Origin: an uncultured Pseudomonadales bacterium
GTDB lineage: Bacteria > Patescibacteriota > Microgenomatia > UBA1400 > Chazhemtobacteraceae
Assembly (NCBI GenBank): GCA_964422035.1
Contig: CAYQZQ010000001.1
Location: 587,786 to 651,785, forward strand
Direction of reading: 5' to 3'
Length of the DNA: 64,000 nucleotides
This document shows positions 2,390 through 64,000 of this stretch, one piece after another (the first letter of the stretch is position 1; each line of letters begins with the position of its first letter). The notes under the pieces are model-generated. The model ran no database searches and had not been told where the DNA came from. It saw only the letters and a program-made list of their open reading frames with translations. The translations under genes were made by a program, and so were the position numbers.

Positions 2390-2409
2390 AGATGTTTAAA
2401 TATGTATAG

Positions 2410-3798: not shown

Positions 3799-3807
3799 AG
3801 TAAAGAT

Positions 3808-5250
3808 ATGAACTCGCCTGCTCAGCCAAACGATCCACAGGATAATAAGCCACAAGATCAAATAAGTGATGGTGATGGTCAAGTAGATAAAAAGCAAAGT
3901 CCCCAAGGAGACATGGAGGAGAAAATTAGACACGGAGACTTGCCCTATCAAGAAAGTGAGCAACAGGAGAAGGTGCAAGAGACAAGCGAGAAAACACAAG
4001 ACAGTCAAGTTGGTGATTACGGGTTTTTAAACGAAGCTGGGGAGAAAGAGACTCAAGAGGTGAAAGGGACTCAGGAAGAAAGTGATACTCCTCAACAGGA
4101 GAACAAGAAGCATGTGGCGATAGAAAAGCAACAACCAATCGAAAAGGAGAGTTCAGAACTTAAAACTACAGAGCCTGTTGAAAATAATGCTAAAAAACAA
4201 GAAGGAAGCAATTTGCAACAAGCGGGGTTGCCGGATTTATCTGGAAATAATATGGAAGGTTCACCTCCTCCAGGACAGATGCCTCCTCCCCCTGCAGACA
4301 ATCAAGAGCCGGAAGTAAATGATCAAGAAGAAAAAAATGAAAAGGTGGTAAAGAAGAGTGGAAAGAAAATAAGTCCGAAAGTAATTGCGGGCGTATTGGG
4401 TTTATTATTGTTGGTTGGTGGTGGTGTGGTAGCGGTTACACAGTTTACAGATTTTAGTGGTGATATAAGGCAGAGAGCTAATGAATCTCTCCATTCTTGT
4501 GTAAATAATGGTGGTCAGTGTGCCCGAAACTCTACGTGTTGTTCTGGAAACTGTGATCTGAGTGGTGGAATGCCGGGAGTTTGTAGGGCAGCAACACCTC
4601 CCCCAAACCCTTGCAATCCTACACGAGATGCTTATTGTTATAACAGCACTGGAGGAGAATGTCAGCCGGATGGAGATGGAGGATGGTATTGTACAAATCC
4701 TGGCACACCTACTCCTGCCCTAAGTCCTGGCCCAGTTTGTGGAAACGGAGATTGCGAACAAGGAGAAACAGTGAATAATTGTCCTCAAGACTGTATATCA
4801 TGTGAGAGAGATATTGGCGGAGTTTGCATGATGGTGGACGCATGTCCCTATGAATGCTGGAACGATACGGCTTCTGATTGTTCTGCCCCAGATAAAACAT
4901 GTTGTACTTGCTCAGGAGTTCCAACTTCAACCAGTGCCCCTTCTCCAACCAGTGCCCCTTCTCCTAAAGTAGGAGGAGCTTGCATGACTACTAAGATATA
5001 TACAGAGGGCCCAAGTGGGTGGGTGGAAACAAGTCCAAGTGATCTGCCAGACAGAGTGAATATTGGTGATAGGATTAGATTGGCGGTTAAGGGTGATAGT
5101 GCGGGTGTAGTTGAGGGTCGATTTAAAGTCAATAATAGTAGTTGGATTTCAACTACAACTACAAATGAAAAAGGTGAATATTTCATTGAATATACTTTGA
5201 ATGAGGGTGGTCAATATACAATTGCAGGAGAAGTTTTATATGGAAAATAA
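3808..5250 (+). CDS. Cysteine-rich membrane-anchored surface protein (acidic disordered N-terminus, one TM, multiple Cys-knot-like modules)
   Basis: About 190 aa acidic/Gln-rich N-terminus, then TM (VIAGVLGLLLLVGGGVVAVTQF), then about 40 Cys in spaced modules (CVNNGGQCARNSTCCSGNCDLSGGMPGVC; CGNGDCEQGETVNNCPQDCISC...). It ends in a Cys-free beta-rich C-terminal domain. Confidence 0.55.
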   Translation: MNSPAQPNDPQDNKPQDQISDGDGQVDKKQSPQGDMEEKIRHGDLPYQESEQQEKVQETSEKTQDSQVGDYGFLNEAGEKETQEVKGTQEESDTPQQENKKHVAIEKQQPIEKESSELKTTEPVENNAKKQEGSNLQQAGLPDLSGNNMEGSPPPGQMPPPPADNQEPEVNDQEEKNEKVVKKSGKKISPKVIAGVLGLLLLVGGGVVAVTQFTDFSGDIRQRANESLHSCVNNGGQCARNSTCCSGNCDLSGGMPGVCRAATPPPNPCNPTRDAYCYNSTGGECQPDGDGGWYCTNPGTPTPALSPGPVCGNGDCEQGETVNNCPQDCISCERDIGGVCMMVDACPYECWNDTASDCSAPDKTCCTCSGVPTSTSAPSPTSAPSPKVGGACMTTKIYTEGPSGWVETSPSDLPDRVNIGDRIRLAVKGDSAGVVEGRFKVNNSSWISTTTTNEKGEYFIEYTLNEGGQYTIAGEVLYGK

Positions 5251-5752
5251 AAAGAAAATTTTAACTGCTGTTTTAATAGTTTTGCTTTTGGCAGCTATTG
5301 GGGTTTTTGTGATAGTTATCGTTCCGAGATTAACAACGGTTGATGAGGGAGTTGCTCCTACAGCTCCAGAAAGCATGCCAGCAGCGGCAGAGTGGAAAGG
5401 TGGTCAGTCATGTCAGCTGGCTTTTACATTACCTACTGAAGCCCCTACCCCTACTCCAACTGACACCCCTACCCCAACTGACACCCCTACTCCTACTCCC
5501 ACCGATACTCCAACCCCTACTCCAACTGACACCCCTACTCCCACCGATACTCCAACTGAGATAATAACCTCAACACCAACAGAAACAGTGAACCCAACTA
5601 CAACTAAGATTGCAGAAGCGACCCCAGCTGAGACAACCACAACCACCCCAACAGCTACAGAATTACCTGAGGCGGGAATTGGATTACCAACACTGGGTGC
5701 ACTTGGGGGCGGAGTAGTGATGATTCTTTTGGGGATTTTGTTGATTCTCTAA
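5201..5752 (+). CDS. Pro-Thr repeat surface protein with N-terminal signal-anchor and C-terminal 'LPEAG'-hydrophobic segment (sortase/exosortase-type sorting signal candidate)
   Basis: TM near the N-terminus (ILTAVLIVLLLAAIGVFVIVIV). Repeats of (TPTPTD)n. The C-terminus is '...ELPEAGIGLPTLGALGGGVVMILLGILLIL'. It overlaps the upstream ORF by 50 nt. Confidence 0.5.
   Translation: MRVVNIQLQEKFYMENKKKILTAVLIVLLLAAIGVFVIVIVPRLTTVDEGVAPTAPESMPAAAEWKGGQSCQLAFTLPTEAPTPTPTDTPTPTDTPTPTPTDTPTPTPTDTPTPTDTPTEIITSTPTETVNPTTTKIAEATPAETTTTTPTATELPEAGIGLPTLGALGGGVVMILLGILLIL
5440..5567 (+). repeat. In-frame tandem nucleotide repeat encoding (T-P-T-P-T-D)n linker
   Basis: Direct repeats of roughly 18-24 nt ('actgacacccctaccccaact...') are seen in the sequence. 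Artefactual ORFs appear in the other frames and on the antisense strand. Confidence 0.8.
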
Positions 5753-34986: not shown

Positions 34987-37485
34987 TCAAGTTTGTAGGT
35001 CATCAGATCCAGTCTTAGTCGATTCTTTTTTGTCAACCATCATGGTTAGATTATAACGTCCTTGATCATCTATTTCATAGAGTTTAACTTTTATCTGGTC
35101 TCCTTTATGGGCCCATTGATGTGGATCTTTGACGTATTCTTTTGAGATATTTGAGATGTGAACCAGTCCTTTGGTGTCGGGCAGAAATTCAACAAAGATG
35201 CCGTAGTCTTTGATGTTAGTTACCGAGCCGATGTATGTCTCGCCTACTTTGGGTTGGGTTTGTAATGGTTGTTGGGGAAGAATTTGGGGTGATTGGGGCT
35301 GGTTTTGGGATGGCTCTTGCTTGGTTTGACTGTGGCGTTGCTTTGAAGAGGTGATAACTTTTTGGCGATTGTGAGTGCGATTTTGTTCAGGTAGGGGCAA
35401 AGTGTAAGCGGGGAAGGGACTGGAAATGCGGCCGTCGATGGTGAGTTTGTTGATGATTTGATAGCGACCAAGGTTGACTAAGTCGTCCTGGGTATATAAA
35501 TCACCGAATTCTTGTTTTATTCTGTCAGCGTCATCAGCTCCGACTACAAATGTAGCAATGGTGCCTACGTTGCCAAAAATAGCTTTTTGAATTTCTTCAG
35601 GTAACTGAGCTGTATATTGGTTTGCAAGAGTTAAGCCAAGACGATATTTTCTGGCTTCGGAGAGAATTTTTATGAATGATTGAGTGGCAAAGTTTTGAAA
35701 CTCGTCAACATATAAGAAGAAATCTTTTCTTTCTTCTTCGGGAACGTTAACTCTGTTCATGGCTGCAAGTTGGAATTGGGTAATAAACATGGCACCAAGA
35801 AGAGCAGCGTTAGCTTCGCCTAATTTGCCTTGGGATACGTTAAGAATAAGGATTTTGCCTTGATCCATGATTTCTTCCAAGTCTATTGTTGAAGTGGGAC
35901 TTTCTAGCACTTTTCTTATGGTGGGGCTGCCGATGAATTGACCTACTTTGTTTAAGATAGGGGCCACCGCTTCGGTTTGGAGTCGCTCTGAATACTGATT
36001 AAATTCTTTTTCCCAAAAATCAATTAGCACTTGATGCTCGATGGCATCGAGACTATTAACAATTTTTGAACGAAACTGGCCATTGGTGAGGATTTTGGGA
36101 ACATCAAGCAAAGTTGAGCCGGGGGTTTCAACAAGAGTCAAAAGAGTGTTGCGGAAGATGTACTCCATGCGTGGCCCCCATGAATAATGAAAAAGTTTAT
36201 GAAAGATAGAGACGATGCCTTCCATGACGAGCTCTTTGTGCTCTGGTCGTTTTACTTCAAGTGGATTGAGGTGGAAAGGACGATCCATGTTGGTAGGATC
36301 AAGATAAGCAACATCTTTGATGCGATGGTCTGGTACGAAATCCAGAAGTATATCTGAAAGGTCTCCATGAGGGTCGATGACGGCCAGTCCTTGATCTTTT
36401 TGCAGATCTGAGATGGCCATGTTAGCCATTAACCAAGATTTACCTGTGCCTGATTTGCCTAAGATATAAAAATGTCGACGACGATCGGTAAGCCTGATAC
36501 CAAATGGAGCGAGTCTGTTTTTGAATTCGGTTTTGGCGTAGATGGTTAGACTTTTCTCTTCTTGAGAAGTTGTGGATTTGGCAACTGGCAGGTTATCTGG
36601 CGGCTCTCCCCGCAGGGTTTTGCCCCAGGCAAGGTTGCGAATTCCGACGTGTTGCAGGCTAGGAAAGTGAAAAAGACTGGCGAGTTCAACAACATTTAAG
36701 ACTTGATTTTTGGGTATAAAGTTGGGGGTGCGATTAATAAGTGATGAGATGAATTTTTGTTTGCGCTTGGGTTTTTGAAGTGAGAAAGAGTTGCCCTGGT
36801 TGAGAGTATAGGTATGGTAGGCACTGGATAGTTGAATGAGGAGACTTTGGGCTTGATTGGGATCTTTGGAGGTAGTGAGAATTCTTAGGTCAGCTTGGTA
36901 GGCTGGTGAGGAAATCTTGTCTTCGATAAGGTTGGCTTGAGGGTGGGCTTTGAAAACTTCAGGATCTGGGCTGACTCCTTTTTCGATGATGTGTCGGCTG
37001 CCTTGAGCCCAACCAGAGGGAGCGGCGGTAAGGAGTATTTGAATAATGGCAGCAGAGTGAGGAGTGGTTTTGGAGAGAACCCCTAGTATGGCTGAGAGGG
37101 GGTCTGTGTCTTCAAATTGATTGTAGGTTTTAAGAGGAAAATGATAGGGAGAGGTTAGCTGCAGCTGACCGGTACAAGTATGACCGTAGTTAGTCCATCC
37201 TGGTAAGTAGTCCTCCATTTGAGTGATAACTGAAGTTGGGTATTGGGCGGCGATTTGATTGCGGAGAAGTTGTTGATGTTTTTGGGGGGCGGTGACGATG
37301 AAGAATACTCTTTGGTTGAGGCTGGCAATTTCCAGACTAATGGTGGGTTGATTGTTTAAAAGTCTTTGAAAAAAGTTATCACTTAAAATGTTGTTTAAAC
37401 CAGAGAGAAACTGAGCAGACGCTTCTGGAGTATATTCGGAGTCTTTAGCAGTTCGGACTTCTAAGATTGTGCGTTGGGCAGGCAT
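34987..37485 (-). CDS. VirD4/TrwB/TraD-like P-loop ATPase (type IV coupling-protein-like) with C-terminal S1 RNA-binding domain
   Basis: 832 aa. 'RRRHFYILGKSGTGKSWLMANMAISDLQKDQGLAVIDPHGDLSDIL' (the TrwB_AAD-type Walker A plus 'DPxGD'). Walker B 'FFLYVDEFQNF'. A Gln/Pro-rich linker, then the S1 fold 'VGETYIGSVTNIKDYGIFVEFLPDTKGLVHISNISKEYVKDPHQWAHKGDQIKVKLYEID'. Confidence 0.6.
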   Translation of the reverse strand: MPAQRTILEVRTAKDSEYTPEASAQFLSGLNNILSDNFFQRLLNNQPTISLEIASLNQRVFFIVTAPQKHQQLLRNQIAAQYPTSVITQMEDYLPGWTNYGHTCTGQLQLTSPYHFPLKTYNQFEDTDPLSAILGVLSKTTPHSAAIIQILLTAAPSGWAQGSRHIIEKGVSPDPEVFKAHPQANLIEDKISSPAYQADLRILTTSKDPNQAQSLLIQLSSAYHTYTLNQGNSFSLQKPKRKQKFISSLINRTPNFIPKNQVLNVVELASLFHFPSLQHVGIRNLAWGKTLRGEPPDNLPVAKSTTSQEEKSLTIYAKTEFKNRLAPFGIRLTDRRRHFYILGKSGTGKSWLMANMAISDLQKDQGLAVIDPHGDLSDILLDFVPDHRIKDVAYLDPTNMDRPFHLNPLEVKRPEHKELVMEGIVSIFHKLFHYSWGPRMEYIFRNTLLTLVETPGSTLLDVPKILTNGQFRSKIVNSLDAIEHQVLIDFWEKEFNQYSERLQTEAVAPILNKVGQFIGSPTIRKVLESPTSTIDLEEIMDQGKILILNVSQGKLGEANAALLGAMFITQFQLAAMNRVNVPEEERKDFFLYVDEFQNFATQSFIKILSEARKYRLGLTLANQYTAQLPEEIQKAIFGNVGTIATFVVGADDADRIKQEFGDLYTQDDLVNLGRYQIINKLTIDGRISSPFPAYTLPLPEQNRTHNRQKVITSSKQRHSQTKQEPSQNQPQSPQILPQQPLQTQPKVGETYIGSVTNIKDYGIFVEFLPDTKGLVHISNISKEYVKDPHQWAHKGDQIKVKLYEIDDQGRYNLTMMVDKKESTKTGSDDLQT

Positions 37486-37508: not shown

Positions 37509-38189
37509 TTATTGGTTAGAAAGTGCTGAGGATTGTTCTTGATTGGTGCTTTCTTGTTGATCTTGTGAAGGGGGCGAAGATTGGGGTTGATCTTTTTTAA
37601 AAACAATTTTATCTTTGGGCTTGTCGGTTTTGCCGATGATTTTTACTTGGGACAAAAGAATGCCTTCAACCACTAAGCCTTTATCATCAAAAAGCTGGGT
37701 CAGTTCCTTTTCAAGAGCTTTTTCAATAGCGGTTCTTTGTGAACGAATCTGCTCGGCTTTAATTTGAGTGAAGATATTGGAGATTCTTGAGCGGGCAAAG
37801 GGACGGACTACTTTGGAGACGAAGTTGTCACCTATGTTTTCCCAAAGTTCGGGAGCATTTTTTTTGTCAATTCTGAAAAGAACTGAACCTTCTACAGAGA
37901 TTTCCTGGCCATCTTGGGTGGTGGTGGTTATAGCTTTATCCCCTAGAGCTTCTTTGTTTTTAGGATTAAAGTTTTCAACTATCGAGTATTCGAGTATTTG
38001 AGCGTTGAAGAGCTTGGCAACCTGCCAGAATGGAATCTTAAGGTGCAAACCCGGACCCCAGACTCGATGAAGAACTCCTCTACCCCTGTCATAGATACAA
38101 GCAACGTGGCCGGGGGGCACAGAGACGAAAAAACCTCCAACTACTTCATCTACCAGAAAGCTGACTATTAGTTTGTCAAAATCTGCCAT
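37509..38189 (-). CDS. SPFH/band-7 (prohibitin/stomatin-like) membrane protein with Gln/Ser-rich tail
   Basis: An N-terminal hydrophobic segment, then an SPFH core ('IPFWQVAKLFNAQILEYSIVENFNPKNKEALGDKAITTTTQDGQEISVEGSVLFRI') and a coiled coil. Confidence 0.7.
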   Translation of the reverse strand: MADFDKLIVSFLVDEVVGGFFVSVPPGHVACIYDRGRGVLHRVWGPGLHLKIPFWQVAKLFNAQILEYSIVENFNPKNKEALGDKAITTTTQDGQEISVEGSVLFRIDKKNAPELWENIGDNFVSKVVRPFARSRISNIFTQIKAEQIRSQRTAIEKALEKELTQLFDDKGLVVEGILLSQVKIIGKTDKPKDKIVFKKDQPQSSPPSQDQQESTNQEQSSALSNQ

Positions 38190-38533: not shown

Positions 38534-39394
38534 TCAATCACTGTTGGTTGTATTTTGCAATTTTTGTGTTTGTTTGGTAAGTTGAGAGGCAATTTTAGGA
38601 TAAAGAGGGCGGGGGTGAAAATAGGCTGAATGAAGAGTAATGGTTTCTTGAGTGAGTTTGGGCTTCATATATAGATACTGGAGAGTAAAAAGGAGTAGGT
38701 TTAAAGGAGCTAATAGGTAGGTGAAAGGGGAAGCTTTGTTTTTTGATTGTTTTTTGTTAAAAGATTGGTAAGCGTTGGATAAGTGTTTTTTTACCCACGA
38801 GTTTTGAGATAAAAGTTGTTGGTGCGTATTGTGGCGGTCAAAAAGAGGTCTGACTTGAAGTATTTCATGGGCTGTATAGAGATTGCGCTTGGGTTCGGGA
38901 ACAGAGAGACCTAGAGAGTCAAGCCAGAGATTGTTGCAGATGTCATTTGAAGTAATAGCTGTTTTTTGAGGACGGCGGCGAGAGAAAAAAAGTTTGGTTA
39001 TGATGAAAACAAAGGGTCTGGTTATCCAAAGAGTGTGAGGGGTGGTGACAATTAAAATGTCAATGTCGTCTTGAGGACGGGCGTTGTTGACGGCTATTGA
39101 ACCGGTGGCAGCGATTAGATTGATAGTGGGAATGTGTTTTATAAAACTGGTAAGGCGTTGGGCTACTTTTAGCTTTTTTTGACTAATTTTTGTTCTTTTT
39201 TGACGCTTGGGGGTTAGTTGAGAGTGAATATGTTTTTTAAGTTGAGGTGCTTGATTGATAAAGTCTTTTAGCTGCTTTTTGGAGATAATGTGGGGAGAGA
39301 TTAGTCTTTGGTGCAGATCAGTTAAGCTAAGATCATAATCGAAAAAACGGGCATACTGAATCGTGGCAGCGACCGTCTGGTCAAGAGAGGTCAT
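38534..39394 (-). CDS. Hypothetical protein with possible nucleotidyltransferase-fold core (GS...DxD)
   Basis: 286 aa. 'LIAATGSIAVNNARPQDDIDILIVT' resembles the minimal-NTase (Pol-beta superfamily) motif. The call is weak. Confidence 0.3.
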   Translation of the reverse strand: MTSLDQTVAATIQYARFFDYDLSLTDLHQRLISPHIISKKQLKDFINQAPQLKKHIHSQLTPKRQKRTKISQKKLKVAQRLTSFIKHIPTINLIAATGSIAVNNARPQDDIDILIVTTPHTLWITRPFVFIITKLFFSRRRPQKTAITSNDICNNLWLDSLGLSVPEPKRNLYTAHEILQVRPLFDRHNTHQQLLSQNSWVKKHLSNAYQSFNKKQSKNKASPFTYLLAPLNLLLFTLQYLYMKPKLTQETITLHSAYFHPRPLYPKIASQLTKQTQKLQNTTNSD

Positions 39395-54571: not shown

Positions 54572-55963
54572 GTGGCAGCAATTGAAAAGGAAAACCTTTG
54601 GAAGTCTGTTCTGGGCGAACTGGAGGTTAGTATATCACCAGCTTTTTATAATTCTTTTATTAAACCTTGTTACATCAGCTCGATTGACAAGATTGATAAA
54701 GAGAGACTTTTAGTTGAGTTGGGGTGTATGTCGGGATTTCACCAGCAGACGATTGACCAGAGATATTATGCGCAGATAAAACAGATAATTGAAAAGCAGA
54801 CTGGGAAACAGGCTGAGTTAGCTCTGAAGGTAAAACCTAGACCATTTGAGGAAGAGGAAGTTTTGGACGAAAAAGAGGAGGCAACAAAAGAACCAGACTT
54901 GTTTGAACATCAAGAGTTTGAGGAAAAGGAGATGGAAGGGAAGGGAAGAAAGGCGGGTTTGAACTTAAGATTTTCATTTGATAATTTTGTGGTGGGAAGT
55001 TCGAATCAACTGGCTTACGCAGCAGCCAAAGGGGTGGTTGATGCGCCAGGAACAAAGCATAACCCACTATTTTTATGGGGTGGGGTTGGAGTGGGTAAGA
55101 CGCATTTAATGCATGCGGTGGGACAGGAACTATTGGGGAAAGGGTTGAATGTGCAGGCAGCAACAAGTGAGCAGTTTACAAATGAGTTGGTAACCACGAT
55201 CAGAAATAAAAACGTCGATGAGTTTAAGAAGAAGTATCGAAATTTGGATGTGTTATTGATTGATGATATTCAGTTTTTTGCAGGTAAAGAAAGTAGTCAG
55301 GAAGAATTTTTTCATACCTTCAATGAGTTATACAGTAAGGGAGCTCAGATTGTATTGACTTCTGACAGGAGACCTCAAGAAATTGAAGATGTTGAAGATA
55401 GGTTAATATCAAGATTTTTAGGAGGCTTGACTGTAGACATTAGTTTGCCAGACTGGGAGATGAGGTTGGCAATACTTAAGCAAAAATGTAATGAGTTGAA
55501 AGTTAATTATGAACCAGGAGCTTTGGATATCATTGCCACCTCGACAAACACCAACGCCAGAGAACTGGAAGGGATTTTAACGAGAATTATTAATATTGCT
55601 GAGATGGAAACAGGAGCAGTGACCAAAAATTTAGTAGAAAGAGAGATTGGGGTAGAGGCAGAGAAGAGAGCCAGAAGACTGCGTCCTCAAGAGGTTATTT
55701 CTTTGGTGGCCAAACATTTTGATTTAAAAAACAAACAATTAGTGGGTAAAAGCAGGAAATCAGAGTTAGTAAAAGCACGCCACATTACTATGTATTTACT
55801 GCGTGAGGAGATGGGAATGACTTTGCAACGCATTGCAAAACTGATTGGAGATAGAGATCACACCACAGTAATGCATGCTGTAGAAAAAATAGAAGAGGAG
55901 ATGATTGATAATCGTTTACTGCGATCTGATGTTATGGAAATGAAGCAGAAGATATACAAGTGA
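54572..55963 (+). CDS. dnaA: Chromosomal replication initiator protein DnaA
   Basis: AAA+ 'NPLFLWGGVGVGKTHLMHAVG' (Walker A) and 'LLIDDIQFF' (Walker B). C-terminal DNA-binding domain 'ELVKARHITMYLLREEMGMTLQRIAKLIGDRDHTTVMHAVEKI'. Confidence 0.9.
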   Translation: MAAIEKENLWKSVLGELEVSISPAFYNSFIKPCYISSIDKIDKERLLVELGCMSGFHQQTIDQRYYAQIKQIIEKQTGKQAELALKVKPRPFEEEEVLDEKEEATKEPDLFEHQEFEEKEMEGKGRKAGLNLRFSFDNFVVGSSNQLAYAAAKGVVDAPGTKHNPLFLWGGVGVGKTHLMHAVGQELLGKGLNVQAATSEQFTNELVTTIRNKNVDEFKKKYRNLDVLLIDDIQFFAGKESSQEEFFHTFNELYSKGAQIVLTSDRRPQEIEDVEDRLISRFLGGLTVDISLPDWEMRLAILKQKCNELKVNYEPGALDIIATSTNTNARELEGILTRIINIAEMETGAVTKNLVEREIGVEAEKRARRLRPQEVISLVAKHFDLKNKQLVGKSRKSELVKARHITMYLLREEMGMTLQRIAKLIGDRDHTTVMHAVEKIEEEMIDNRLLRSDVMEMKQKIYK

Positions 55964-56275
55964 ACAAGTGGTGGAAAAGGAGTGGATAAAAAATTAAAAA
56001 GTGAACAAATATTGATTAACTTAAAATAAAATAAAAAGATATCCCAAAATTTAAATAATAATTCACAATAGAATTCACAATATTAAACAGTAATTAACAA
56101 AACATAACCCAAAAACAAGAGCTCAGCGGCTTTTATTTTTGAAGATCAAAAATCGGTATATCAATTAAAATATGGGTTTTAAACAAAAACAACAGGCAGA
56201 ATACAGGCGTAGTATCCAGATATACACAGTGCCTATTATTACGACTATATATTTATATATAATTAATTAATAACA
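55964..56275. other. Candidate oriC / DNA-unwinding element (dnaA-dnaN intergenic, very AT-rich)
   Basis: 312 bp, almost entirely A/T. DnaA-box-like 'AGTGGATAA' (55981-55989) and 'GGTGGAAAA' (55970-55978). Tandem 'GAATTCACAATA' repeats (56068-56095). AT-runs are suitable for unwinding. The canonical dnaA-oriC-dnaN arrangement. Confidence 0.45.
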
Positions 56276-57394
56276 ATGAAGTTAACAATTTTAGCGAGTA
56301 ATTTAGAAAAAGCGATAGGCGTAACAAGCAGAAGCGTTGCAAGTAGGCCTCAGTTGCCGGTATTGGCAAATATTAAGTTGTCAGCAAATAAGCAAGGCTT
56401 GGAAGCTTTATCTACGGACTTGGAGATTGGATTTAAGGTAAATGTGGGAGCTAAGGTAGAAGAAGAAGGAGAGATTACTGTGGAGGCAAAGACATTGTCT
56501 GAATTAATTAAAACTTTACCAGCGGGAAAGGTTCTGATAGAAACAGAAAAAGAGATCTTGAAGTTATCTTCAGATGGAGTTGATGTGGAGTTGCCAGGTA
56601 TTGGAGCAGGAGAGTTTCCTTCTATTCCTTCTTTGGAGGGAGAGGGTCAGATGGAGATGTCGGCTGATAGATTGAAAAAAGTGGTAGGAAGAGTGAGTTC
56701 ATCGGCGGCAATGGATGAATCAAGACCGGTGTTGACTGGAATGCTGTGGGAGATAGGAAAGAAAAATATGGTGATGGTGGCAACTGATGGGTATAGGTTG
56801 AGCAAGGATAAAGTGAAGATAAGCAAGATTGATGAGAGTTTGGTAGGGAAGAAAATGGTTATTCCCAGTCGAGCTTTAGTTGAGCTAGTTAGAGTGATGG
56901 AAGAAGGAGTTGATAAGGTGATAGGTCAACTACAGGAAGAAAAACAGCAAGTTATTTTTCAAGCAGGAGAGATAGAGTTGGTGAGCAGGTTATTGTCGGG
57001 GGAGTTTCCTCCATATGAGCAGATAATGCCTAAAGGGCATGAAGTTAAGGTTAGAGTAGTTACAGAGGAGTTTGAGGAAGCGGTTAAGAGAGCGGCCATC
57101 TTTGCAAGGGATAGTGCTAATATTATTAAGATAAAAGTGGAAGATGGAGAGTTGATTGTGAGTGCTAATAGTGCCCAGGTAGGAAAAAGTAGAACTAGAT
57201 TGTCAGGAGAGGTTGAAGGAAGTGGTTTGGAAGTGGCTTTTAACAGTAGATATTTGCTGGATTATTTTAAGGCGGTGGAGACTGAGGAGATTGAAATGGA
57301 AAGTTTGGGGGGGTTGAAACCAGGTGTTTTTAAACAGGTGGGTGAGAGTAAGAACTGGGTGCAAGTAATCATGCCGGTGCGAGTACAAAAATAG
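56276..57394 (+). CDS. dnaN: DNA polymerase III beta sliding clamp
   Basis: 372 aa. 'MKLTILASNLEKAIGVTSRSVASRPQLPVLANIKLSANKQGLEALSTDLEIG' is a typical beta-clamp N-terminus. Three-domain length. Confidence 0.9.
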   Translation: MKLTILASNLEKAIGVTSRSVASRPQLPVLANIKLSANKQGLEALSTDLEIGFKVNVGAKVEEEGEITVEAKTLSELIKTLPAGKVLIETEKEILKLSSDGVDVELPGIGAGEFPSIPSLEGEGQMEMSADRLKKVVGRVSSSAAMDESRPVLTGMLWEIGKKNMVMVATDGYRLSKDKVKISKIDESLVGKKMVIPSRALVELVRVMEEGVDKVIGQLQEEKQQVIFQAGEIELVSRLLSGEFPPYEQIMPKGHEVKVRVVTEEFEEAVKRAAIFARDSANIIKIKVEDGELIVSANSAQVGKSRTRLSGEVEGSGLEVAFNSRYLLDYFKAVETEEIEMESLGGLKPGVFKQVGESKNWVQVIMPVRVQK

Positions 57395-57395
57395 T

Positions 57396-58454
57396 CTACT
57401 GATATAGGTTTTCAGGTAGGGCAGGGACGATGAATCTTGATTGAGGGAAGTTAAGATCGTTAGTGGAGAGGGGGCCGGTTAGGGAGTAGACAGGTTGAAG
57501 CAGGTTGGGGTTTTGAGGATCGAAAAAGAATGATAAGCGAATATCTTGAACAGTTAAGTTAAGTTGGGAAGCAGAATTCAGTTGTTTTTCTTGTTTAATT
57601 AGGTTGGTACTGGGAAGTCTTTGAGCTTTTTGGGGAGCTGTTTGTTGAAGATTTGAATAAGAGGCAGGGGAAGAAGTGGAGATGGAGGTAATGGTTTGAA
57701 ATCCGCCTAAAATTTCAAGATATTTGATGTTAAGTTGGGAATCAAAGATGACGATAATAGGGGCGTTGTTTGTAGTGGTGGTATAGATAGGGAGGTTGTC
57801 AGGAGATTGGGTGAAAAAAAGACTTCTTAGTTTGTCGGGTTGGTCGTTTTGATAGTTTGAAGAGTCAAGAATGACTGGTTCACCGATGACTTGAAGTTGA
57901 GACGGTGAGTTTAATATTTGATTGAGTCTTTCAGTTATGTTTTGTTTGATGATTTGGTTGTTAGGGAACTCGGAAATGGGTAGTTGAGGAGAAGAGTTGT
58001 TAAAAGTAAGTTGATTGCTGTTTAGATTGACAGAGAGAGAGTGAGGTGGTTTTGACCAAACTAGAAAGGGAGGTTGGTTGGCGACTAAGTCTTGATTTGA
58101 GAAACCTAAGTTTTGAGCAATAGTTTGTGAGGAAGAGTTATTAATTAAAGGAGTCTGAATTTTGTAGAGATTTAATTTATCTGGCAGTTGAGGAGGTTGA
58201 GTCTGCCAGGAAATGATTAGGCCCTGGTCTTGATTTTGAAGTGGTGAGCTGGCTTGGGGGAGAGGAATCGGTGAGGCAGTAATTTGGGGAATAGGGGATG
58301 GTTGACTAGGAATTTGGGTTGGTGGGTTTTGGATAACTAGATAAGCAATTAGGCCAATAATTAACAAGGTGATGGCAGTAATAGAGACGGTGGAGAGGTT
58401 TAGAGAGGAAAGTTTTTGTTTTATGCCGGTGAGTATGTTTTTATTAAGGTCCAT
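57396..58454 (-). CDS. Hypothetical N-terminally TM-anchored extracytoplasmic protein (Pro/Gln/Ser-rich stalk plus C-terminal domain); candidate T4SS scaffold (VirB8/PrgL-like role speculative)
   Basis: 352 aa with TM 'VSITAITLLIIGLIAYLVI'. No catalytic motif. It is convergent with dnaN, separated by 1 nt, and overlaps the next gene by 11 nt. Confidence 0.4.
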   Translation of the reverse strand: MDLNKNILTGIKQKLSSLNLSTVSITAITLLIIGLIAYLVIQNPPTQIPSQPSPIPQITASPIPLPQASSPLQNQDQGLIISWQTQPPQLPDKLNLYKIQTPLINNSSSQTIAQNLGFSNQDLVANQPPFLVWSKPPHSLSVNLNSNQLTFNNSSPQLPISEFPNNQIIKQNITERLNQILNSPSQLQVIGEPVILDSSNYQNDQPDKLRSLFFTQSPDNLPIYTTTTNNAPIIVIFDSQLNIKYLEILGGFQTITSISTSSPASYSNLQQTAPQKAQRLPSTNLIKQEKQLNSASQLNLTVQDIRLSFFFDPQNPNLLQPVYSLTGPLSTNDLNFPQSRFIVPALPENLYQ

Positions 58455-60954
58455 AGATTTTTTGTCCGTTAATTAAACAAGCGTTGGGGGCAGAAGGGTT
58501 GTATCCGCTACATCCTTCAGGAACATTAACGCCTGCGGCTGGGCATTTATTGTATTTTATACCGACGTATTCAAGGTGAAGATGGGGATTTTGAAAACTG
58601 GGGACTGAGCTGGTAGCTCCGGAAAGGCCAATTTGAGTGCCTGGTTTGACTGATTGACCTGGTGATACAAAAGTAGCTGAGAGGTGACCGTATATAACCT
58701 GGAAAGATTGACCTTTTGAGTAAGCATCGAGAATTATCCAGTTACCGTAGACTCCTCCCCAACCGGTTATTTTGATGGTACCAGGAACCACGCTGTATAC
58801 AGGAGTGGCAACTGGAGCTGAGATGTCTATGGCTTCGATTGCTGAGTGAGAGAATGAGCCGTGAGGGCCTTGAGTTACGGGACCGCGGTTGCCTAGTGGC
58901 CAGGCAGGAGCACAGCCGTCAATGATGGGGCCGCTGTAGGGGGTGACTCCTTGTCCGCCGATTAGTGCGGGCAGACCAGATTCAAGTTGGACGATGGTGG
59001 AGATGAGCGGGCCGGCATTGAGGGCGGCTATGTAAAACAGAAGAACAGCAATGGAAGAAAAGATGAGTGTTACTAGGGCAGATGCACCGGCGGTGAAAGT
59101 GGCTGATATAGCAGATTGCAAAGCTCGTCCTAGGCCGGTAATTATTCCAATACCAGCAGATCCAGCCATAATAAAGGGAGCGAATAAGTCTCTCTTTTTA
59201 ACTTTTTCTCCGTAAAGGGTGACAGCGATATTTTGGACAAATTCTTTTACCTTTTTGATTATGGCTGTGCTGACGGTGATGATGATATCAACGACAACTC
59301 CTAGTCCTGGTACTACATTTAGAGATTCTGCGGCTATATGAATACCAAGTTGTTCCGCGGCTTGAAGAGAGATTTTTTTGAGCAGCTCTTTGGCACCTGT
59401 TTGGAAGCCTTTTTGAGCAAGAGTTTGTAGACCTTTTTTAAGTACTTGGTGAGAGGTTTTTTGGGCGAGGCGAGTAAATATTCTTTTACCCAAGAATGAA
59501 CTGGCTTTGGTTCGAAGGAAGCCGACGGGAGAGAGAACGGCTTGGATTGTGGTGTGGGAAGAGGCAGGGAAAAGTGAGAGAAGGCGATTTCTTAAAGGAT
59601 TTAGTTTAGATAAGAGGGGATTTTTTTGAGCTTGAAGGAGAAGTTTTTGGCCGGCTTCTGTGTCTGCTAGATTAAAATAATTAGAGAGAATAGAGGAATA
59701 AAATTTAAGATTGTTGTTCACTTGTTGATGAAGAGGATGGTCTGGTTGAGTTTGAGCTTGTTGGAGGGTTGATTGAAGTTGTTGGGGAGTAATTCCGCGA
59801 CCCAGGTAACGAATTAGCAGTGGTGAGAATTGAGGTTGATCAGGAATATTTTCAGTAAAGCTGGCCCAGGCTTCAGCTTCTTGCAAGGGAAATATTCTTA
59901 GGGTTGGGTTTTGTTTTCTTAGGGAAGAGAGAAGTTGGGGCTTGTCAACGTGAGATTCAGGGTTGGCTTGTTGGAAGATTTTTTGGGTAGTGGGGTGGAT
60001 GCTGAGTTGGTTAAGTGAAATATTATTGTTTTTATGGAAACTATTGAGCTGGTCAAAAAGTGGAGAGTCTTGAGGAACTGATTGATAATTTTGATCAACA
60101 ATGTCTTTTTGAAGATTTTTAAGATTGGTACTTTGAAGGAGTTTTTTGGTGTTGTCTTGATTGATTTTTTGTAGTAGGTGGTCGGTGTTAATGGTGGTGG
60201 AAAAAAGCGGGTCAGAGTAGTGGGTGTCAAGGTATTGTTGGGGTTTTTGGAAAAGAAACTCAAAGTCTGGTTGTTGGGCGGGTTGGACAAGAGGGGTGAT
60301 TTGTTGGTTAAGTTGGTAAAGAGAAGATTGAGATTGGTATTGAGGGCTGTTTTGAGCGAGAGCGAGGTCGGCAAGAATTGGCAGTTGTTTGGCGCTGGGT
60401 TGAAGAAGGGTAATGTCGTTGGCTAGAGTTTGTTGAGCTTTGTTGGTTTCTTGGGCGGGAAGTTGAAGGTTTTGATTTTGAATTTTTTGGGAAATGACTT
60501 GTTGAGCAAGGTCTTGATTGATCTGATGAGGGTCAGATTGAGGTTTGGTAGTGGAAGCTTTTTTTATGGTTTGGGTTTGGGTTTGATTGAGTTGTAGGGC
60601 AAGTTTTTCTTGAATGATTTTTAGTTGTTGGTGGTGAACAAGGTATGAGATGAGGTCTTTTTGGTCTTGTTCAAGAGAGGTGTTTTTGAGAGGTTTTTGG
60701 AGTTGTTGTTGGTAGTTTTGATACTGGACGACCAGTTGGGTTAAAAGAGCGGTGTCGATATAGTTGGTTTTGTTTTCAGGTTGAGGGGCGGTGAGAAGTT
60801 GTTTTAGTTGTTGGGGTTGGATTTGATAGAGATTGGATAGATCTTGAAGGAGTTGTTCCAACTCCTGTTTTTGTTGAAGGGTGAGCTGGTCTGACTCTTT
60901 TGAAAGTAGAGTTTGCAGCTGTTGACGCTTGGTTTCAAGTGTTTGATAATCCAC
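58444..60954 (-). CDS. Coiled-coil / multi-TM / C-terminal M23 peptidase protein (T4SS- or injection-associated cell-wall hydrolase candidate)
   Basis: 836 aa. About 520 aa of Gln-rich coiled coil, then hydrophobic helices ('VPGLGVVVDIIITVSTAII', 'LFAPFIMAGSAGIGIITGLG', 'ALVTLIFSSIAVLLFYIAAL'), then M23 motifs 'HSAIEAIDISAP' (HxxxD) and 'NPHLHLEYVG' (HxH). Confidence 0.65.
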   Translation of the reverse strand: MDYQTLETKRQQLQTLLSKESDQLTLQQKQELEQLLQDLSNLYQIQPQQLKQLLTAPQPENKTNYIDTALLTQLVVQYQNYQQQLQKPLKNTSLEQDQKDLISYLVHHQQLKIIQEKLALQLNQTQTQTIKKASTTKPQSDPHQINQDLAQQVISQKIQNQNLQLPAQETNKAQQTLANDITLLQPSAKQLPILADLALAQNSPQYQSQSSLYQLNQQITPLVQPAQQPDFEFLFQKPQQYLDTHYSDPLFSTTINTDHLLQKINQDNTKKLLQSTNLKNLQKDIVDQNYQSVPQDSPLFDQLNSFHKNNNISLNQLSIHPTTQKIFQQANPESHVDKPQLLSSLRKQNPTLRIFPLQEAEAWASFTENIPDQPQFSPLLIRYLGRGITPQQLQSTLQQAQTQPDHPLHQQVNNNLKFYSSILSNYFNLADTEAGQKLLLQAQKNPLLSKLNPLRNRLLSLFPASSHTTIQAVLSPVGFLRTKASSFLGKRIFTRLAQKTSHQVLKKGLQTLAQKGFQTGAKELLKKISLQAAEQLGIHIAAESLNVVPGLGVVVDIIITVSTAIIKKVKEFVQNIAVTLYGEKVKKRDLFAPFIMAGSAGIGIITGLGRALQSAISATFTAGASALVTLIFSSIAVLLFYIAALNAGPLISTIVQLESGLPALIGGQGVTPYSGPIIDGCAPAWPLGNRGPVTQGPHGSFSHSAIEAIDISAPVATPVYSVVPGTIKITGWGGVYGNWIILDAYSKGQSFQVIYGHLSATFVSPGQSVKPGTQIGLSGATSSVPSFQNPHLHLEYVGIKYNKCPAAGVNVPEGCSGYNPSAPNACLINGQKIYGP

Positions 60955-61009
60955 GAATTTACGGTGGTTAGTAATTGTGAGTATAGTTTACTATGAACAA
61001 AGGAAGAAA

Positions 61010-62917
61010 CTAAGTTTGATCTGATTGAGGTGGGTTTGAAGAATCAGAGCTTTGATTTGTTGATTCTTGTTGGTCTTTTTCTCTTTTATCCAGAATTTCT
61101 TGAGGTTTGGTGGTTATTAGAGCGTGCTCATCGGGAGAGGAAACAACTCTGAGGGCGACGTGGTTTTGTCCGGCGAAAAAGATACCCTCTCCGACATTAG
61201 CAGAAAGAAGAAGGTGTTTTTCTCCTTGAGAGAGATAGAAAAGATCAGCCAGTTTATCAATGGCGGCGGGGGATTGTTTCATAAGAAACTGAATAGCGGA
61301 GTTGGTGACGATACTGGAGCCGTATTGGGAGTTGAGAAAGTCTTCAACATTTTGAGAGATGATACTAACCCCTAAATAATACTTTCTGGCGCGTTTAACA
61401 AAGCTTTGCAGGACCTGGGCAGAGTCCTCGTGTCTCATTAGGTACCAGGCCTCGTCAACGATGAGAAGACGGCGCTTAAGTTCTCTGCGAATTTGGGTCC
61501 AGATGAAGTCTAAGATCATGAACATGATAATTGGTCTGATTTCATCAGCGGTTTCTTTGAGAGAGAAAACAGTCATGGGTGAGTCAAGATCAATGTTGGA
61601 TTGTTGGTCAAAGATACCTCTTAAGCCGCCCTTGACGAATTTTTCCAGTCGGCGAGCTAGAGATTGGGCAGGTTTTTCTTCCATACCGATGAGAACTTTG
61701 TATAAGTCTTCCATACGGGGTGGTGGATTGTTGTGGGTACTGGGATCTTGGGTGATATTGCGCTGTTGATAGGTCAGGTTAATGGCTTGATTGAGTATGG
61801 CGTCCTGATCTGGAGATATTTCTCCAAGCATGATTTTTAGAAGAGAGGTCAAAAAAAGATGTTTGTAGTTCATTTCATCAGGTGATGAATTTTCTGCAGG
61901 GGGAAGCTGGAAAGGGTTTATTTTATTGGCAGAGGTGGTTTCAAAGGAGATGTGGTTGCCACCAACGGCTTTGCAGAGCATTTCGTATTCGTTTTCAGGG
62001 TCGATGATGATGGCGTTGGTGCCGAACATAAGAGAGCGAAGCATTTCCAGTTTGACAAGATATGATTTTCCAGCACCTGAGGTGGCTAGAACTAACATGT
62101 TGGCGTTTTCTAGAGAGAAGCGATCGAAGATAACTAAAGACTCGTTGTGTTCGTTGATGCCATAGAGGATGCCTTTATTGTCGGTAAGCTCTGAGGAGGT
62201 GAAGGGGAAAGTGGTTGAGAGAGCAGTGGTGTCCATGTTGCGGGTGATTAAGAGTTTGTCTTTACAGTAAGGAAGAGTAGATTTAAAAGCTTCTTCTTGT
62301 GAGAGAGAGGCAATTTTGGAAACGATGATAAGGGAGCCGAGAAGAGATTGGACTTGACTGGTGATGGTTTCAAGTTCTTTTTTGGTGTCGGTTGAGATGG
62401 TGATATAGAGAGAAAATTGGAAGAAGCGCTCAACTCCTTTGGTTAACTGGGATTGGAGGCTTTTAGCGTCTTCAAGTTGGGCTTGTGTGGAGGCTTGAGG
62501 AATACGACCCCTCTCGACGTCTGAACCGATTTCGGCCTCCATTTCGGCAATACGGCGGCGGAGTTTGTCAAGAGTACCTTTGACCTCGATGGGGTAAATG
62601 AACATGGAGACGTCTAGAGAGTGATCGAAGTTAATTAAGGGTGACAACCAGTTGGCAGAGACGTAGCGAGGGTAGCCGGCGACGAAAAGGGTGCGGGTAT
62701 AGGTGGAGCCGATTTTGAGATAAGTAAAATCAACTTCTATTGAGGGAGGAGCGATGATGTCTTGAACGTTTACAGTTCCGGAAGCAGCTGAGTCGGGTAG
62801 ATTTTTTTCTTCCTCCGGTTTTGATTGAATAGTAGGGGTGGATTTGGGTGGGGAAGGAGGTTGTTTTTTGGGGGATTGATCCTTTTTGTTTTGGTTTAGG
62901 AAAGGAAGTATGTTCAT
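61010..62917 (-). CDS. VirB4/TrbE/PrgJ-like type IV secretion ATPase
   Basis: 635 aa. An N-domain 'TRTLFVAGYPRYVSANWLSPLINFDHSLDVSMFIYPIE' is like VirB4. Walker A 'LVLATSGAGKSYLVKL...AIIIDPENEY'. Walker B 'LLIVDEAWYLM' is the diagnostic VirB4 'DEAW'. Confidence 0.7.
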   Translation of the reverse strand: MNILPFLNQNKKDQSPKKQPPSPPKSTPTIQSKPEEEKNLPDSAASGTVNVQDIIAPPSIEVDFTYLKIGSTYTRTLFVAGYPRYVSANWLSPLINFDHSLDVSMFIYPIEVKGTLDKLRRRIAEMEAEIGSDVERGRIPQASTQAQLEDAKSLQSQLTKGVERFFQFSLYITISTDTKKELETITSQVQSLLGSLIIVSKIASLSQEEAFKSTLPYCKDKLLITRNMDTTALSTTFPFTSSELTDNKGILYGINEHNESLVIFDRFSLENANMLVLATSGAGKSYLVKLEMLRSLMFGTNAIIIDPENEYEMLCKAVGGNHISFETTSANKINPFQLPPAENSSPDEMNYKHLFLTSLLKIMLGEISPDQDAILNQAINLTYQQRNITQDPSTHNNPPPRMEDLYKVLIGMEEKPAQSLARRLEKFVKGGLRGIFDQQSNIDLDSPMTVFSLKETADEIRPIIMFMILDFIWTQIRRELKRRLLIVDEAWYLMRHEDSAQVLQSFVKRARKYYLGVSIISQNVEDFLNSQYGSSIVTNSAIQFLMKQSPAAIDKLADLFYLSQGEKHLLLSANVGEGIFFAGQNHVALRVVSSPDEHALITTKPQEILDKREKDQQESTNQSSDSSNPPQSDQT

Positions 62918-63705
62918 GTTTGTTGGTTGTTTATTGATTGATGGGGTGACTTTGGTGGTTGTTGTTCAGTTGAAGCTGGTGTTTGGGCTGTTTGTTGTGT
63001 TTGTTCAGGTTGGGTGTCTGATTTTTTTTGAGCTTGGACAGCGGTGGTTTGATATTGGTCTGGTTCTGCCTGGTTGGGTAAGCCTTCGGGGTTGTCTGGA
63101 TTGTATATTTTGTAGAAAAGAGCCATGAGTTGTTTGGTGTTTAGTTGTTGGGCTTGGAGGCCAAGACTGGAGAACTGGCTGATCAAATGGTCGCGGCGAG
63201 GGAAAAGGTTGTCTTTGGCTTTCTTGAGGATGTAGTCGATTTTATAGGATGGTTTTTGTTGTTTGCTTGAGAAGGGGTTAAGTCCTTGAGAAAAAGTTTC
63301 TTTGAGGGTGAGTTGAGAGTAGGGAATGACGAGATAGAATTTTTTTTCTAAAACTTTGTTTTTCTTGACCAAGTTTTTAATGAAACTGCGATATTTAACA
63401 ACCTGCTCTTTTAATTTTTGTGACTGAGTTTGTTTAAGGTTGTTGTCGAGGCGCTGAATGTAGTCGGAGATATCTTTTCTGATTGAGCGCATGAGAATTT
63501 GAACTGGGAAAGAGAGAGAATTGAGAAGAGAGGCATAGGCGTAGATGATGGCGTCTTGCTCTTGTTCTGACAAGAGACCGAAGTTGATGGCGTTAAGCTG
63601 GAGGACTAGAGCTGCTGAGCCGTCTTTGAGAATAAGAAGATCGTCTTTAATGGTGTAGACATTGAGGTGATCTTGAGTGGTAGATTTTAATGCTTTGTTT
63701 AACAT
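62914..63705 (-). CDS. Hypothetical protein, possibly a detached N-terminal segment of the VirB4-like ATPase (or VirB3-like partner); Gln/Thr-rich tail
   Basis: 263 aa. 'NVYTIKDDLLILKDGSAALVLQLNAINFGLLSEQEQDAIIYAYASLLNSLSFPVQILMRSI' resembles the extreme N-terminus of VirB4/TrbE proteins. The stop overlaps the VirB4-like start by 4 nt. Confidence 0.4.
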   Translation of the reverse strand: MLNKALKSTTQDHLNVYTIKDDLLILKDGSAALVLQLNAINFGLLSEQEQDAIIYAYASLLNSLSFPVQILMRSIRKDISDYIQRLDNNLKQTQSQKLKEQVVKYRSFIKNLVKKNKVLEKKFYLVIPYSQLTLKETFSQGLNPFSSKQQKPSYKIDYILKKAKDNLFPRRDHLISQFSSLGLQAQQLNTKQLMALFYKIYNPDNPEGLPNQAEPDQYQTTAVQAQKKSDTQPEQTQQTAQTPASTEQQPPKSPHQSINNQQT

Positions 63706-63723
63706 GGGCAGATGTTACTTATT

Positions 63724-64000
63724 TTAACTTGTTTGTTGACTGGCTTGTAGTTTGAGGGGAGGAATGATTTTGCCTTCTAGTTTTAAATCATAAGCGGGAA
63801 AATTATATTGGGGGTTTTCGGCGGTGATTTGGTAGATGCCGTTTTCCAGTGGTTTTACGAAACGGAACTGGCCAAGTTTGTTTGACTTGGTGGCTCGAAC
63901 AGTAGAGCCGTTTTTTAGAATTTCGATTAAGGTGTTCTCCATGATTTTGCCTTGAGGAGTTAAGGTCATACCAACGATAGTGTTGGGTTCTTCTGAAGGA
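63724..64000 (-). CDS. Partial CDS (C-terminal end; continues beyond window) with carboxypeptidase-regulatory/prealbumin-like beta-sandwich segment
   Basis: 'GSTVRATKSNKLGQFRFVKPLENGIYQITAENPQYNFPAYDL' resembles CarbopepD_reg/transthyretin-like folds. The frame stays open to the window edge. Confidence 0.35.
   Translation of the reverse strand, partial: PSEEPNTIVGMTLTPQGKIMENTLIEILKNGSTVRATKSNKLGQFRFVKPLENGIYQITAENPQYNFPAYDLKLEGKIIPPLKLQASQQTS

Follow-up and report, generated by a model that had tools for sequence, protein, structure and literature searches.

Patescibacteria are known to carry a Gram-positive-type type IV secretion system (T4SS) without a relaxase, whose VirB4 clade is related to the MPF-FATA conjugation machinery (Quinonero-Coronel et al. 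2025, PMC12102498). In that survey, TrsD was the most abundant companion, VirB3 was of the PrgI type, VirB2 arrays were abundant in Microgenomatia, hydrolases with M23 domains were present, and relaxases were almost absent. The genes dnaA, dnaN, and rnpA were found to adjoin virB4 in Microgenomatia and Paceibacteria; VirB3 was rarely linked to virB4 in Microgenomatia (22.6%), VirB6 was scarce, and VirB8 was essentially absent (PMC12102498). A homologous cluster, SEML1_0006-0019, is essential for the epibiotic growth of Southlakia epibionticum, the one tested species (Wang et al. 2023, PMC10633639). A 2025 review restates this essentiality and speculates on uptake through the pilus (PMC12857230), and a 2026 preprint describes tubular structures at the host interface that may be T4SS pili (bioRxiv 10.64898/2026.06.21.733656). 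Molecular handles on the lifestyle of these ultrasmall, host-dependent bacteria are few, and the Patescibacteria T4SS is among them. Here, we describe a locus of this type at positions 57396 to 64000 of a 64,000-nucleotide stretch of DNA (the window) from contig CAYQZQ010000001.1 of an uncultured member of the Microgenomatia order UBA1400.

Overall, the region is best explained as the core of a chromosomal, vertically inherited Patescibacteria-type T4SS that comes from Gram-positive MPF-FATA conjugation machinery, a reading to which we assign a probability of about 0.82. The genes concerned and their conserved neighbours are as follows.

63724->64000, minus strand: PrgI/VirB3-like gene truncated by the window edge, of which the 3' end is visible
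62914-63705, minus strand: TrsD-like protein, the detached N-terminal half of VirB4, 263 aa (profile matches)
61010-62917, minus strand: VirB4 ATPase, the motor of the system, 635 aa (NCBIfam, Pfam, and PDB matches)
58444-60954, minus strand: membrane-anchored M23 peptidoglycan endopeptidase, 836 aa (PF01551 and a transmembrane block)
57396-58454, minus strand: bitopic extracytoplasmic protein with a predicted YycI/YycH/PepSY-like fold, 352 aa
56276-57394, plus strand: dnaN, convergent neighbour (open reading frame; tblastn in relatives)
55964-56275: AT-rich dnaA-dnaN spacer, a possible oriC with a few DnaA-box-like motifs
54572-55963, plus strand: dnaA, conserved neighbour (open reading frame; conserved order in relatives)

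An earlier reading made from the letters and their open reading frames (ORFs), hereafter the sequence-only reading, had seen here a chromosomal T4SS-type module with a VirB4 and no relaxase, tied to episymbiotic Patescibacteria and unlike a classical integrative conjugative element (ICE). Our results agree with that view, and its five co-directional minus-strand ORFs, beginning 1 nt from dnaN, were all recovered. Of the genes that mark a Patescibacteria-type T4SS, the TrsD-like gene, the lack of a relaxase, and the adjacency to dnaN and dnaA are seen in the window, and the PrgI domain and a three-gene T4SS_pilin array are seen in relatives only.

The assignment of the motor is carried by several models. 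The 635-aa protein scored 376.3 bits on NCBIfam NF045971 (VirB4-like, CD1110 family), above the curated cutoff of 325, with a match that covers positions 180-734 of 752 and leaves out the N-terminus. On the full-length VirB4 model NF045975, the match spans positions 292-877 of 894. The next-best families were VirB4 or TraC, and the CedB, TraD, and FtsK/HerA-type models scored far lower, so that the grouping with FtsK/HerA that the sequence-only reading had named as its possible refutation did not appear in the family scores. Pfam domains included P-loop_TraG (6.7e-29), AAA_10, DUF87, and CagE_TrbE_VirB (23.8 bits; cutoff, 21). The closest solved structure was the VirB4 C-domain 4AG5 from Thermoanaerobacter pseudethanolicus (1.3e-43), and the alignment to it contains the Walker A motif SGAGKS and the Walker B motif VDEAW, in agreement with the VirB4-like ATPase bearing DEAW that had been claimed from the letters.

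VirB4 is not encoded here as a single full-length polypeptide, as its N-terminus is provided by the 263-aa gene. This protein matched NF045975 at positions 102-292 (5.2e-11) and ends exactly where the match of the 635-aa protein starts; therefore, the two genes represent adjoining pieces of one VirB4. The resemblance of the 263-aa protein to the VirB4 N-terminus, already suspected, is thus upheld, with a VirB4_CagE match at positions 16-142 and a weak Pfam match to TraC_F_IV. On the TrsD/TraD model NF041427 it reached 26.2 bits (E 6e-6) against a cutoff of 200, which is below the NCBI membership threshold. N-terminal VirB4-like proteins of this sort have been named TrsD homologues (PMC12102498). 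To compare the locus with its relatives, one genome per species was scanned, which yielded 80 loci from the Patescibacteria Microgenomates group or from similar, mislabelled metagenome-assembled genomes. The TrsD-like gene is separate from virB4 in 77 of these 80 relatives, indicating that the split is real and has been kept. The 80 Microgenomatia VirB4 orthologs are 57-80% identical to the 635-aa protein, values that are inflated in absolute terms because the loci were picked by VirB4 similarity.

Upstream of the TrsD-like gene, the ORF at the window edge has no upstream stop and continues past the end of the window. Its visible part is a C-terminal beta-sandwich with only a weak CarboxypepD_reg match, as expected from the partial beta-sandwich protein described by the sequence-only reading. 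The full-length orthologs were more informative. Two of them (L001:7983-8942 and L011:8379-9287) matched PrgI PF12666 with 34.4 and 29.7 bits (cutoff, 27), and the orthologs share a layout of an N-terminal PrgI domain, two transmembrane (TM) segments, a Pro-rich linker, and a C-terminal beta-sandwich. The C-terminal 87 aa of these orthologs are 59% identical to the window ORF. A PrgI-like N-terminus was observed in 70 of the 80 loci, always on the same strand, and starts at a median of 975 nt (range, 668-1333) upstream of the TrsD-like start.

Further upstream, the relatives carry three paralogous T4SS_pilin genes (PF18895, VirB2-like), genes for a secreted protein of ~790 aa and an anchored one of 171 aa, and, in 44 loci, a gene for a ~570-aa polytopic protein with 7-9 TM segments. 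The pilin and polytopic genes lie 4-9 kb past the equivalent of the window end, the polytopic one 4-6 kb upstream, and tblastn placed none of the relatives' upstream genes elsewhere in the window. By its TM segments and position, the polytopic protein is a putative VirB6. The system had been called minimal; given these upstream components in relatives, it is not, and the window holds its downstream half only. The same comparison answers whether other T4SS components accompany this VirB4 in relatives, as PrgI, TrsD-like, and T4SS_pilin genes do. In the ~790-aa protein (L011:1347-3722; L001:362-2632), whose gene lies upstream of that for the putative VirB6 and which has no Pfam or NCBIfam match, we observed a Cys-rich C-terminal region. 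The sequence of this region is reminiscent of a lytic-transglycosylase-type motif, and the protein might act in the system as a second cell-wall enzyme or as an adhesin. We also observed that a variable insert on the opposite strand usually separates the VirB6-candidate and PrgI-like genes (L001:4412-7920; L011:6016-8280; corresponding positions in other loci). It encodes a cytoplasmic protein of 750-860 aa with no family match, one version of which has a zinc-ribbon motif, and L001 adds a PIN-domain gene. This large protein is poorly conserved, one version occurring in 4 loci and the other in 1.

The gene following virB4 encodes the 836-aa protein, in which Peptidase_M23 (PF01551) occupies residues 707-796 (67.3 bits; cutoff, 28.7; 1.4e-18), with matches to the M23 enzymes ShyA, LytM, and DipM in the PDB (1e-8 to 1e-5). 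Hydrophobic segments, 3-4 in number, lie at residues 540-655; the polytopic membrane segment and C-terminal M23 domain that had been read from the sequence are therefore both present. Across the family, the motifs SH...(E/Q)AIDI, Y(A/G)HL, and HLH.E are conserved together with Cys residues flanking the M23 domain, and the domain is presumed to be an active peptidase. No lytic transglycosylase or CHAP domain was detected in the hydrolase, which carries M23 only. The protein can be regarded as the functional analogue of VirB1/PrgK. Gln is abundant in its N-terminal 520 residues, where no domain was recognised. This Gln-richness comes partly from the composition of the strand, and the apparent coiled coil or low complexity of the protein likewise reflects, in part, mutational strand bias. 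In ~50 loci, the gene after virB4 has the same plan, with a variable N-terminus, a TM block, and a C-terminal domain, and 33 of these genes encode M23. In 17 of the ~50, including L001, L003, L007-L009, and L030, the large membrane protein after VirB4 lacks M23 and the block closes with a shortened last gene; the large protein of L001 (11906-14842) has a Ribosomal_TL5_C-like domain near its N-terminus.

The last gene of the block encodes the 352-aa protein, which has one TM helix, as the sequence-only reading had stated. It gave no family match in Pfam, NCBIfam, or PHROG and no meaningful match in a profile search of PDB sequences. A word-index search returned 2-7 homologs, and a full HMMER scan returned 1813 representatives, most of them of ~350 aa. 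The AlphaFold2 model, built on a 128-homolog alignment, was confident (pLDDT, 86.9; pTM, 0.76) and consists of one TM helix followed by three alpha/beta domains. It matches YycI/YycH/PepSY-type proteins, with which Foldseek agrees (YycI, 8e-8), and it shows the N-terminal TM helix and tandem extracytoplasmic alpha/beta domains of the YycH/YycI fold. A comparison with VirB8, PrgL, and TcpC had been suggested for this protein. Because the model is YycI-like, that suggestion is unsupported: a VirB8/TcpC identity was rejected on fold, and the NTF2-like VirB8 fold was not the best structural match. The best structural match was 5coz (EUBREC_2869), an uncharacterised protein of Eubacterium rectale, and not YycI; should the 5coz gene lie in a Firmicute conjugative element, a connection between this fold and Gram-positive T4SSs might follow.

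A gene of the 352-aa family lies directly before dnaN in 34 of ~50 loci. Its short forms (137-225 aa) keep the anchor and the first domain only. Every one of the 22 loci with M23 has a full-length homolog, and none of the 18 loci lacking M23 does (Fisher, 2.4e-6, with kinship ignored). On a neighbour-joining tree of VirB4, ~12 state changes were counted for the form of the 352-aa protein and the M23 domain, and near-identical pairs such as L006/L030 differ in both. The modelled fold and this co-variation suggest that the 352-aa protein partners, regulates, or restrains the M23 hydrolase. YycH and YycI are regulators of the cell-wall kinase WalK in Bacillus, according to PDB entry titles. A literature search gave nothing useful on control of M23 enzymes by PepSY proteins.

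Next, conservation of the locus was evaluated. In most loci with sufficiently long contigs, tblastn gave the order PrgI-like, TrsD-like, VirB4, large membrane protein, small TM protein, and dnaN, and beyond the convergent dnaN the relatives carry dnaA, rnpA, yidC, jag, and an O-antigen-ligase-like gene. Synteny with dnaN, dnaA, rnpA, and yidC extends over Collier-, Shapiro-, Ames-, and Woesebacteria. By tblastn, dnaN was found in 60 of the 80 loci; it adjoins the module wherever the contig reaches that far and is convergent in most. Median identities were 62% for VirB4, 50% for the TrsD-like protein, 42% for DnaA, 42% for YidC, 40% for DnaN, 29% for the M23 protein, and 24% for the 352-aa protein. 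In the ranking within each genome, which should be less affected by the choice of loci, VirB4 exceeded DnaA in 53 of 53 loci and DnaN in 59 of 59. Pfam on 45 ORFs of the window and tblastn with the relatives' pilins turned up no relaxase, integrase, or pilin, in accordance with what the sequence-only reading had noted. The linked relaxase, integrase, and coupling protein and the variable presence of an ICE are thus not seen, and the locus is fixed beside dnaN. Given the conserved synteny and the ranking of VirB4 above DnaA and DnaN, the locus is an ancient, strongly conserved, housekeeping-like core locus and not a recently acquired mobile element. On these counts, the idea of an acquired module is not supported.

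The arrangement of the block is compact. Adjacent genes share 11 nt or 4 nt, or else stand 55 nt or 18 nt apart, which confirms the dense packing reported earlier; the overlap of the 263-aa stop with the 635-aa start is ATGA. The five genes are probably co-translated, and a single transcription unit is plausible. In a scan of the region, promoter- and terminator-like sites across the block were not above chance, and an Rfam scan of the region gave tRNA-Cys as the sole RNA gene. The dnaN stop (TAG, 57392-57394) converges on the stop of the 352-aa gene (57396-57398), with 1 nt between them. We observed that this 1-base gap at 57392-57398 leaves no intergenic room for a terminator; therefore, each transcript would have to run into the opposite gene before ending, or the two would collide.

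The sequence-only reading had also taken the orientation of these genes, opposed to replication from the adjacent origin, as a sign of acquisition. DnaA boxes with at most 1 mismatch numbered 27 in the window against 18.8 expected, a count reached by 5 of 100 shuffles; since this is not above chance, oriC cannot be placed by boxes. The plus-strand GC skew ranges from +0.15 to +0.49 over all 64 kb (mean, +0.33) with no sign flip at dnaA, the third-codon-position skew is +0.23 to +0.79 in genes of both orientations, and Collierbacteria-like relatives exhibit the same pattern across their dnaA loci. Kadnikov et al. (2020, PMC7143001) described whole-chromosome G/C disparity in the order UBA1400; in strain Ch65, C makes up 29.8% and G 15.0%. 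The cumulative skew there is monotonic, genes are about evenly split between strands, and unidirectional replication has been proposed (PMC7143001). The uniform skew of the window is thus an already published trait and not a new one. The T4SS genes probably do run head-on to the replication fork. However, with about half of the genome head-on and the G/C disparity extending over the whole chromosome, this orientation is uninformative on acquisition, and the argument drawn from it does not hold. As a consequence of the G/C strand bias, the amino-acid composition depends on the strand. In proteins encoded on the minus strand, Gln, Pro, Ser, Thr, Leu, and Asn are abundant (12% Q, 11% P, and 2% E in the 352-aa protein), and in those encoded on the plus strand, Glu, Lys, Gly, and Val are (12% E and 12% V in DnaN).

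One further gene of the window, ~20 kb from the T4SS genes, may bear on the system.

34987-37485, minus strand: soluble VirD4/TrwB-like P-loop ATPase with a C-terminal S1 RNA/ssDNA-binding domain, 832 aa, a possible unlinked component

This ATPase scores just under the cutoffs of TrwB_AAD_bind and TraG-D_C. It has >4000 homologs, which often pass the coupling-protein models and which some sources call T4SS DNA-binding proteins; among the best 120 of these, about one fifth end in S1 and about one third in NUDIX, and other members of this large Patescibacteria family have neither fusion. With the family profile, TrwB was the sole PDB sequence match. Set against a coupling protein, for which a score above the cutoff, a membrane anchor, and linkage would be expected, the 832-aa ATPase shows none of the three: it is anchorless, and in none of the 80 relatives is its gene closer than 10 kb to virB4. 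It may be the survey's "T4CP homologue encoded far from virB4" (PMC12102498), T4CP being the type IV coupling protein, and any role with the T4SS is a matter of speculation. Neither S1 nor NUDIX is mentioned in the main text of PMC12102498 or of the preprint 10.64898/2026.06.21.733656. Its neighbours are a SPFH/Band 7 gene (37509-38189) and an ORF with weak nucleotidyltransferase matches (38534-39394). At the start of the window, on the plus strand (801-5752), we observed a PilN-like gene (801-1358) followed by several co-directional ORFs without family matches and by a gene whose 462-aa product combines Ig-like, CarboxypepD_reg, and purple-acid-phosphatase-N domains. These genes probably close a cluster for type IV pili, the other surface machine tied to the epibiotic lifestyle.

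Taken together, these components suggest how the apparatus might work. The PrgI-like and TrsD-like proteins would tether the VirB4 hexamer to the membrane, and the hexamer would power the assembly of a channel and a VirB2-type pilus, for which the pilin array and the polytopic channel candidate are those of the relatives. The M23 peptidase may open the bacterium's own peptidoglycan locally for the apparatus, and the 352-aa protein may hold, position, or restrain this enzyme. The machine would serve contact-dependent exchange with a host bacterium and not conjugation, given the lack of a relaxase and an integrase and the essential role of the Southlakia epibionticum homolog in epibiotic growth. 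Several observations weigh against this picture. The window holds no pilin or VirB6-like gene, and their presence beyond 64 kb is deduced from relatives. The ~570-aa polytopic family gave no match, to VirB6 or otherwise, either with Pfam in any of 16 members or among PDB sequences, and nothing VirB8-like was recognised. As for the coupling-protein-like ATPase, it is soluble, its gene lies apart from the T4SS genes, and its scores stay under the family cutoffs. The first M23 motif of the 836-aa protein is SH-x6-D (SHSAIEAID) and not the canonical HxxxD, although it is kept across the family, and the predicted topology varies between 3 and 4 TM segments. Finally, the role proposed for the 352-aa protein derives from fold and co-occurrence only, and related genomes are not independent samples.

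Other explanations of the locus have to be weighed against these results. The apparatus could be an uptake machine that imports host DNA, RNA, or other macromolecules, with the soluble S1/NUDIX-fused ATPase handling the incoming nucleic acid. The absence of a relaxase would fit, as would the weak CedB match of VirB4 (59.8 bits), the weak CedD match of the 832-aa ATPase, and the many T4CP-like family members that carry a C-terminal S1 or NUDIX domain. Moreover, these bacteria are unable to make nucleotides, a cultivated relative has been reported to feed on host RNA, with possible T4SS pili at the interface (bioRxiv 10.64898/2026.06.21.733656), and the review mentioned above speculates in the same direction (PMC12857230). 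Nevertheless, the ATPase has no membrane anchor and was never linked to T4SS genes in the 80 relatives. The Southlakia cluster has no recognisable coupling protein (PMC10633639), and the t4cp homologue encoded elsewhere in that genome is not essential, whereas the T4SS genes are (PMC12102498). Since the direction of transport is, in addition, not readable from sequence, we regard import as unlikely. An idea that joins two of our observations is somewhat more doubtful still: in Microgenomatia, a YycI/PepSY-type controller of the M23 enzyme would have replaced the VirB8 of the ancestral Gram-positive T4SS, being gained and lost together with M23, and the TrwB-like S1/NUDIX ATPase would energise a conduit for host RNA or nucleotides. 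The controller would then be an inhibitor, chaperone, or positioner of the T4SS-bound peptidase, and the apparatus, if this were true, would be neither a secretion nor a conjugation device.

The remaining explanations fare worse. A cell-wall remodelling or division complex, in which a VirB4-family ATPase drives or gates a YycH/YycI-controlled M23 hydrolase and transports nothing, might be read from the adjacency and co-variation of the M23 peptidase and the YycI/YycH-fold protein, from the known regulation of WalK by YycH and YycI (PDB titles), and from the housekeeping neighbours and very high conservation. However, VirB4 in relatives comes with genes for PrgI/VirB3-like proteins, TrsD-like proteins, and VirB2-type pilins, and M23 is dispensable in 17 of ~50 loci, whereas VirB4 and the TrsD-like and PrgI-like proteins are near-universal, which makes such a complex very unlikely. 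An ICE, or its decayed remnant beside dnaN, is already contradicted and hardly credible. The best-scoring families are indeed conjugation ATPases of Firmicute and Mycoplasma ICEs, the gene order is like that of Gram-positive conjugation operons, and the genes lie on the strand opposite to dnaA and dnaN; yet position and order are kept in most of the 80 species-level genomes, across several candidate phyla of Microgenomatia, and VirB4 evolves more slowly than DnaA and DnaN. Nor does the window contain a relaxase, an integrase, a linked coupling protein, or a tRNA flanking the locus, whose base composition and skew match the rest of the window. That the 836-aa protein might be a phage tape-measure protein and the region a prophage, which the sequence-only reading had listed as a possible refutation, is itself refuted and has next to no standing. 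PHROG tape-measure and endolysin families do match this protein, but every match falls within residues 663-805, that is, the M23 domain, and the other ~660 residues have none. Capsid, portal, and integrase genes are lacking in the window, the sole terminase-labelled PHROG match falls on the VirB4 ATPase, for which curated VirB4 models give much higher scores, and the 836-aa gene is conserved at this chromosomal site.

The T4SS reading thus stands, and the window offers a clean Microgenomatia example of it: an ancient core locus that is not mobile and whose motor is under stronger constraint than DnaA. It also provides leads that bear on the cargo: the near-universal PrgI-like protein, with its extracellular beta-sandwich, beside TrsD and VirB4; the YycI/PepSY-fold partner that co-varies with M23; and the S1/NUDIX fusions on the unlinked ATPase.

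Compared with known systems, the locus is closest to the Patescibacteria chromosomal T4SS. Both have a TrsD-like protein with VirB4, a PrgI/VirB3-like gene, a peptidase right after virB4, no relaxase, and a location beside dnaA and dnaN, as well as VirB2-like arrays, here in relatives. The Gram-positive MPF-FATA systems share the order of VirB3-like protein, VirB4, membrane-anchored cell-wall hydrolase, and small bitopic protein. In pCF10, for instance, the order is prgI-prgJ-prgK-prgL. Other names and orders are trsC-trsD-trsE-trsG of pGO1/pSK41 and the CD1110 family of CTn2/Tn916-type elements (PMC12102498). A separate TrsD-like protein is likewise found in pGO1, and the VirB4 described here lies above the cutoff of the CD1110 family. 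In contrast to MPF-FATA systems, the locus has no relaxase, linked coupling protein, or integrase and a fixed chromosomal position, its hydrolase is M23-only, and its last gene is not VirB8/NTF2-like; the Gram-positive systems, for their part, lack the VirB2-type pilins that the relatives have. Helicobacter ComB and archaeal Ced import DNA. They resemble the present system in being relaxase-free with a VirB4-family ATPase, and weak CedB and CedD similarities were seen here, but the scores are far under the Ced cutoffs (CedB, 59.8 versus 700; CedD, 31.2 versus 600). Unlike YycH, YycI, and PepSY proteins such as YpeB, the 352-aa protein has no sequence-level similarity to that group (Pfam; PDB sequences), and no WalK-type kinase adjoins its gene. 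Overall, the T4SS and its dnaA/dnaN location are already published, and the window adds no new kind of system. It differs from the survey as follows: a PrgI-like gene with an added beta-sandwich immediately precedes the TrsD-like gene at 70 of the 80 loci, versus 22.6% linkage there; relatives have a conserved polytopic candidate 4-6 kb upstream, where VirB6 was scarce; and a YycI/PepSY-fold protein occupies the slot expected for VirB8, which was essentially absent there. YycI and PepSY are not mentioned in the main text of PMC12102498, and the fold of the 352-aa protein and its co-variation with M23 are an addition to that survey.

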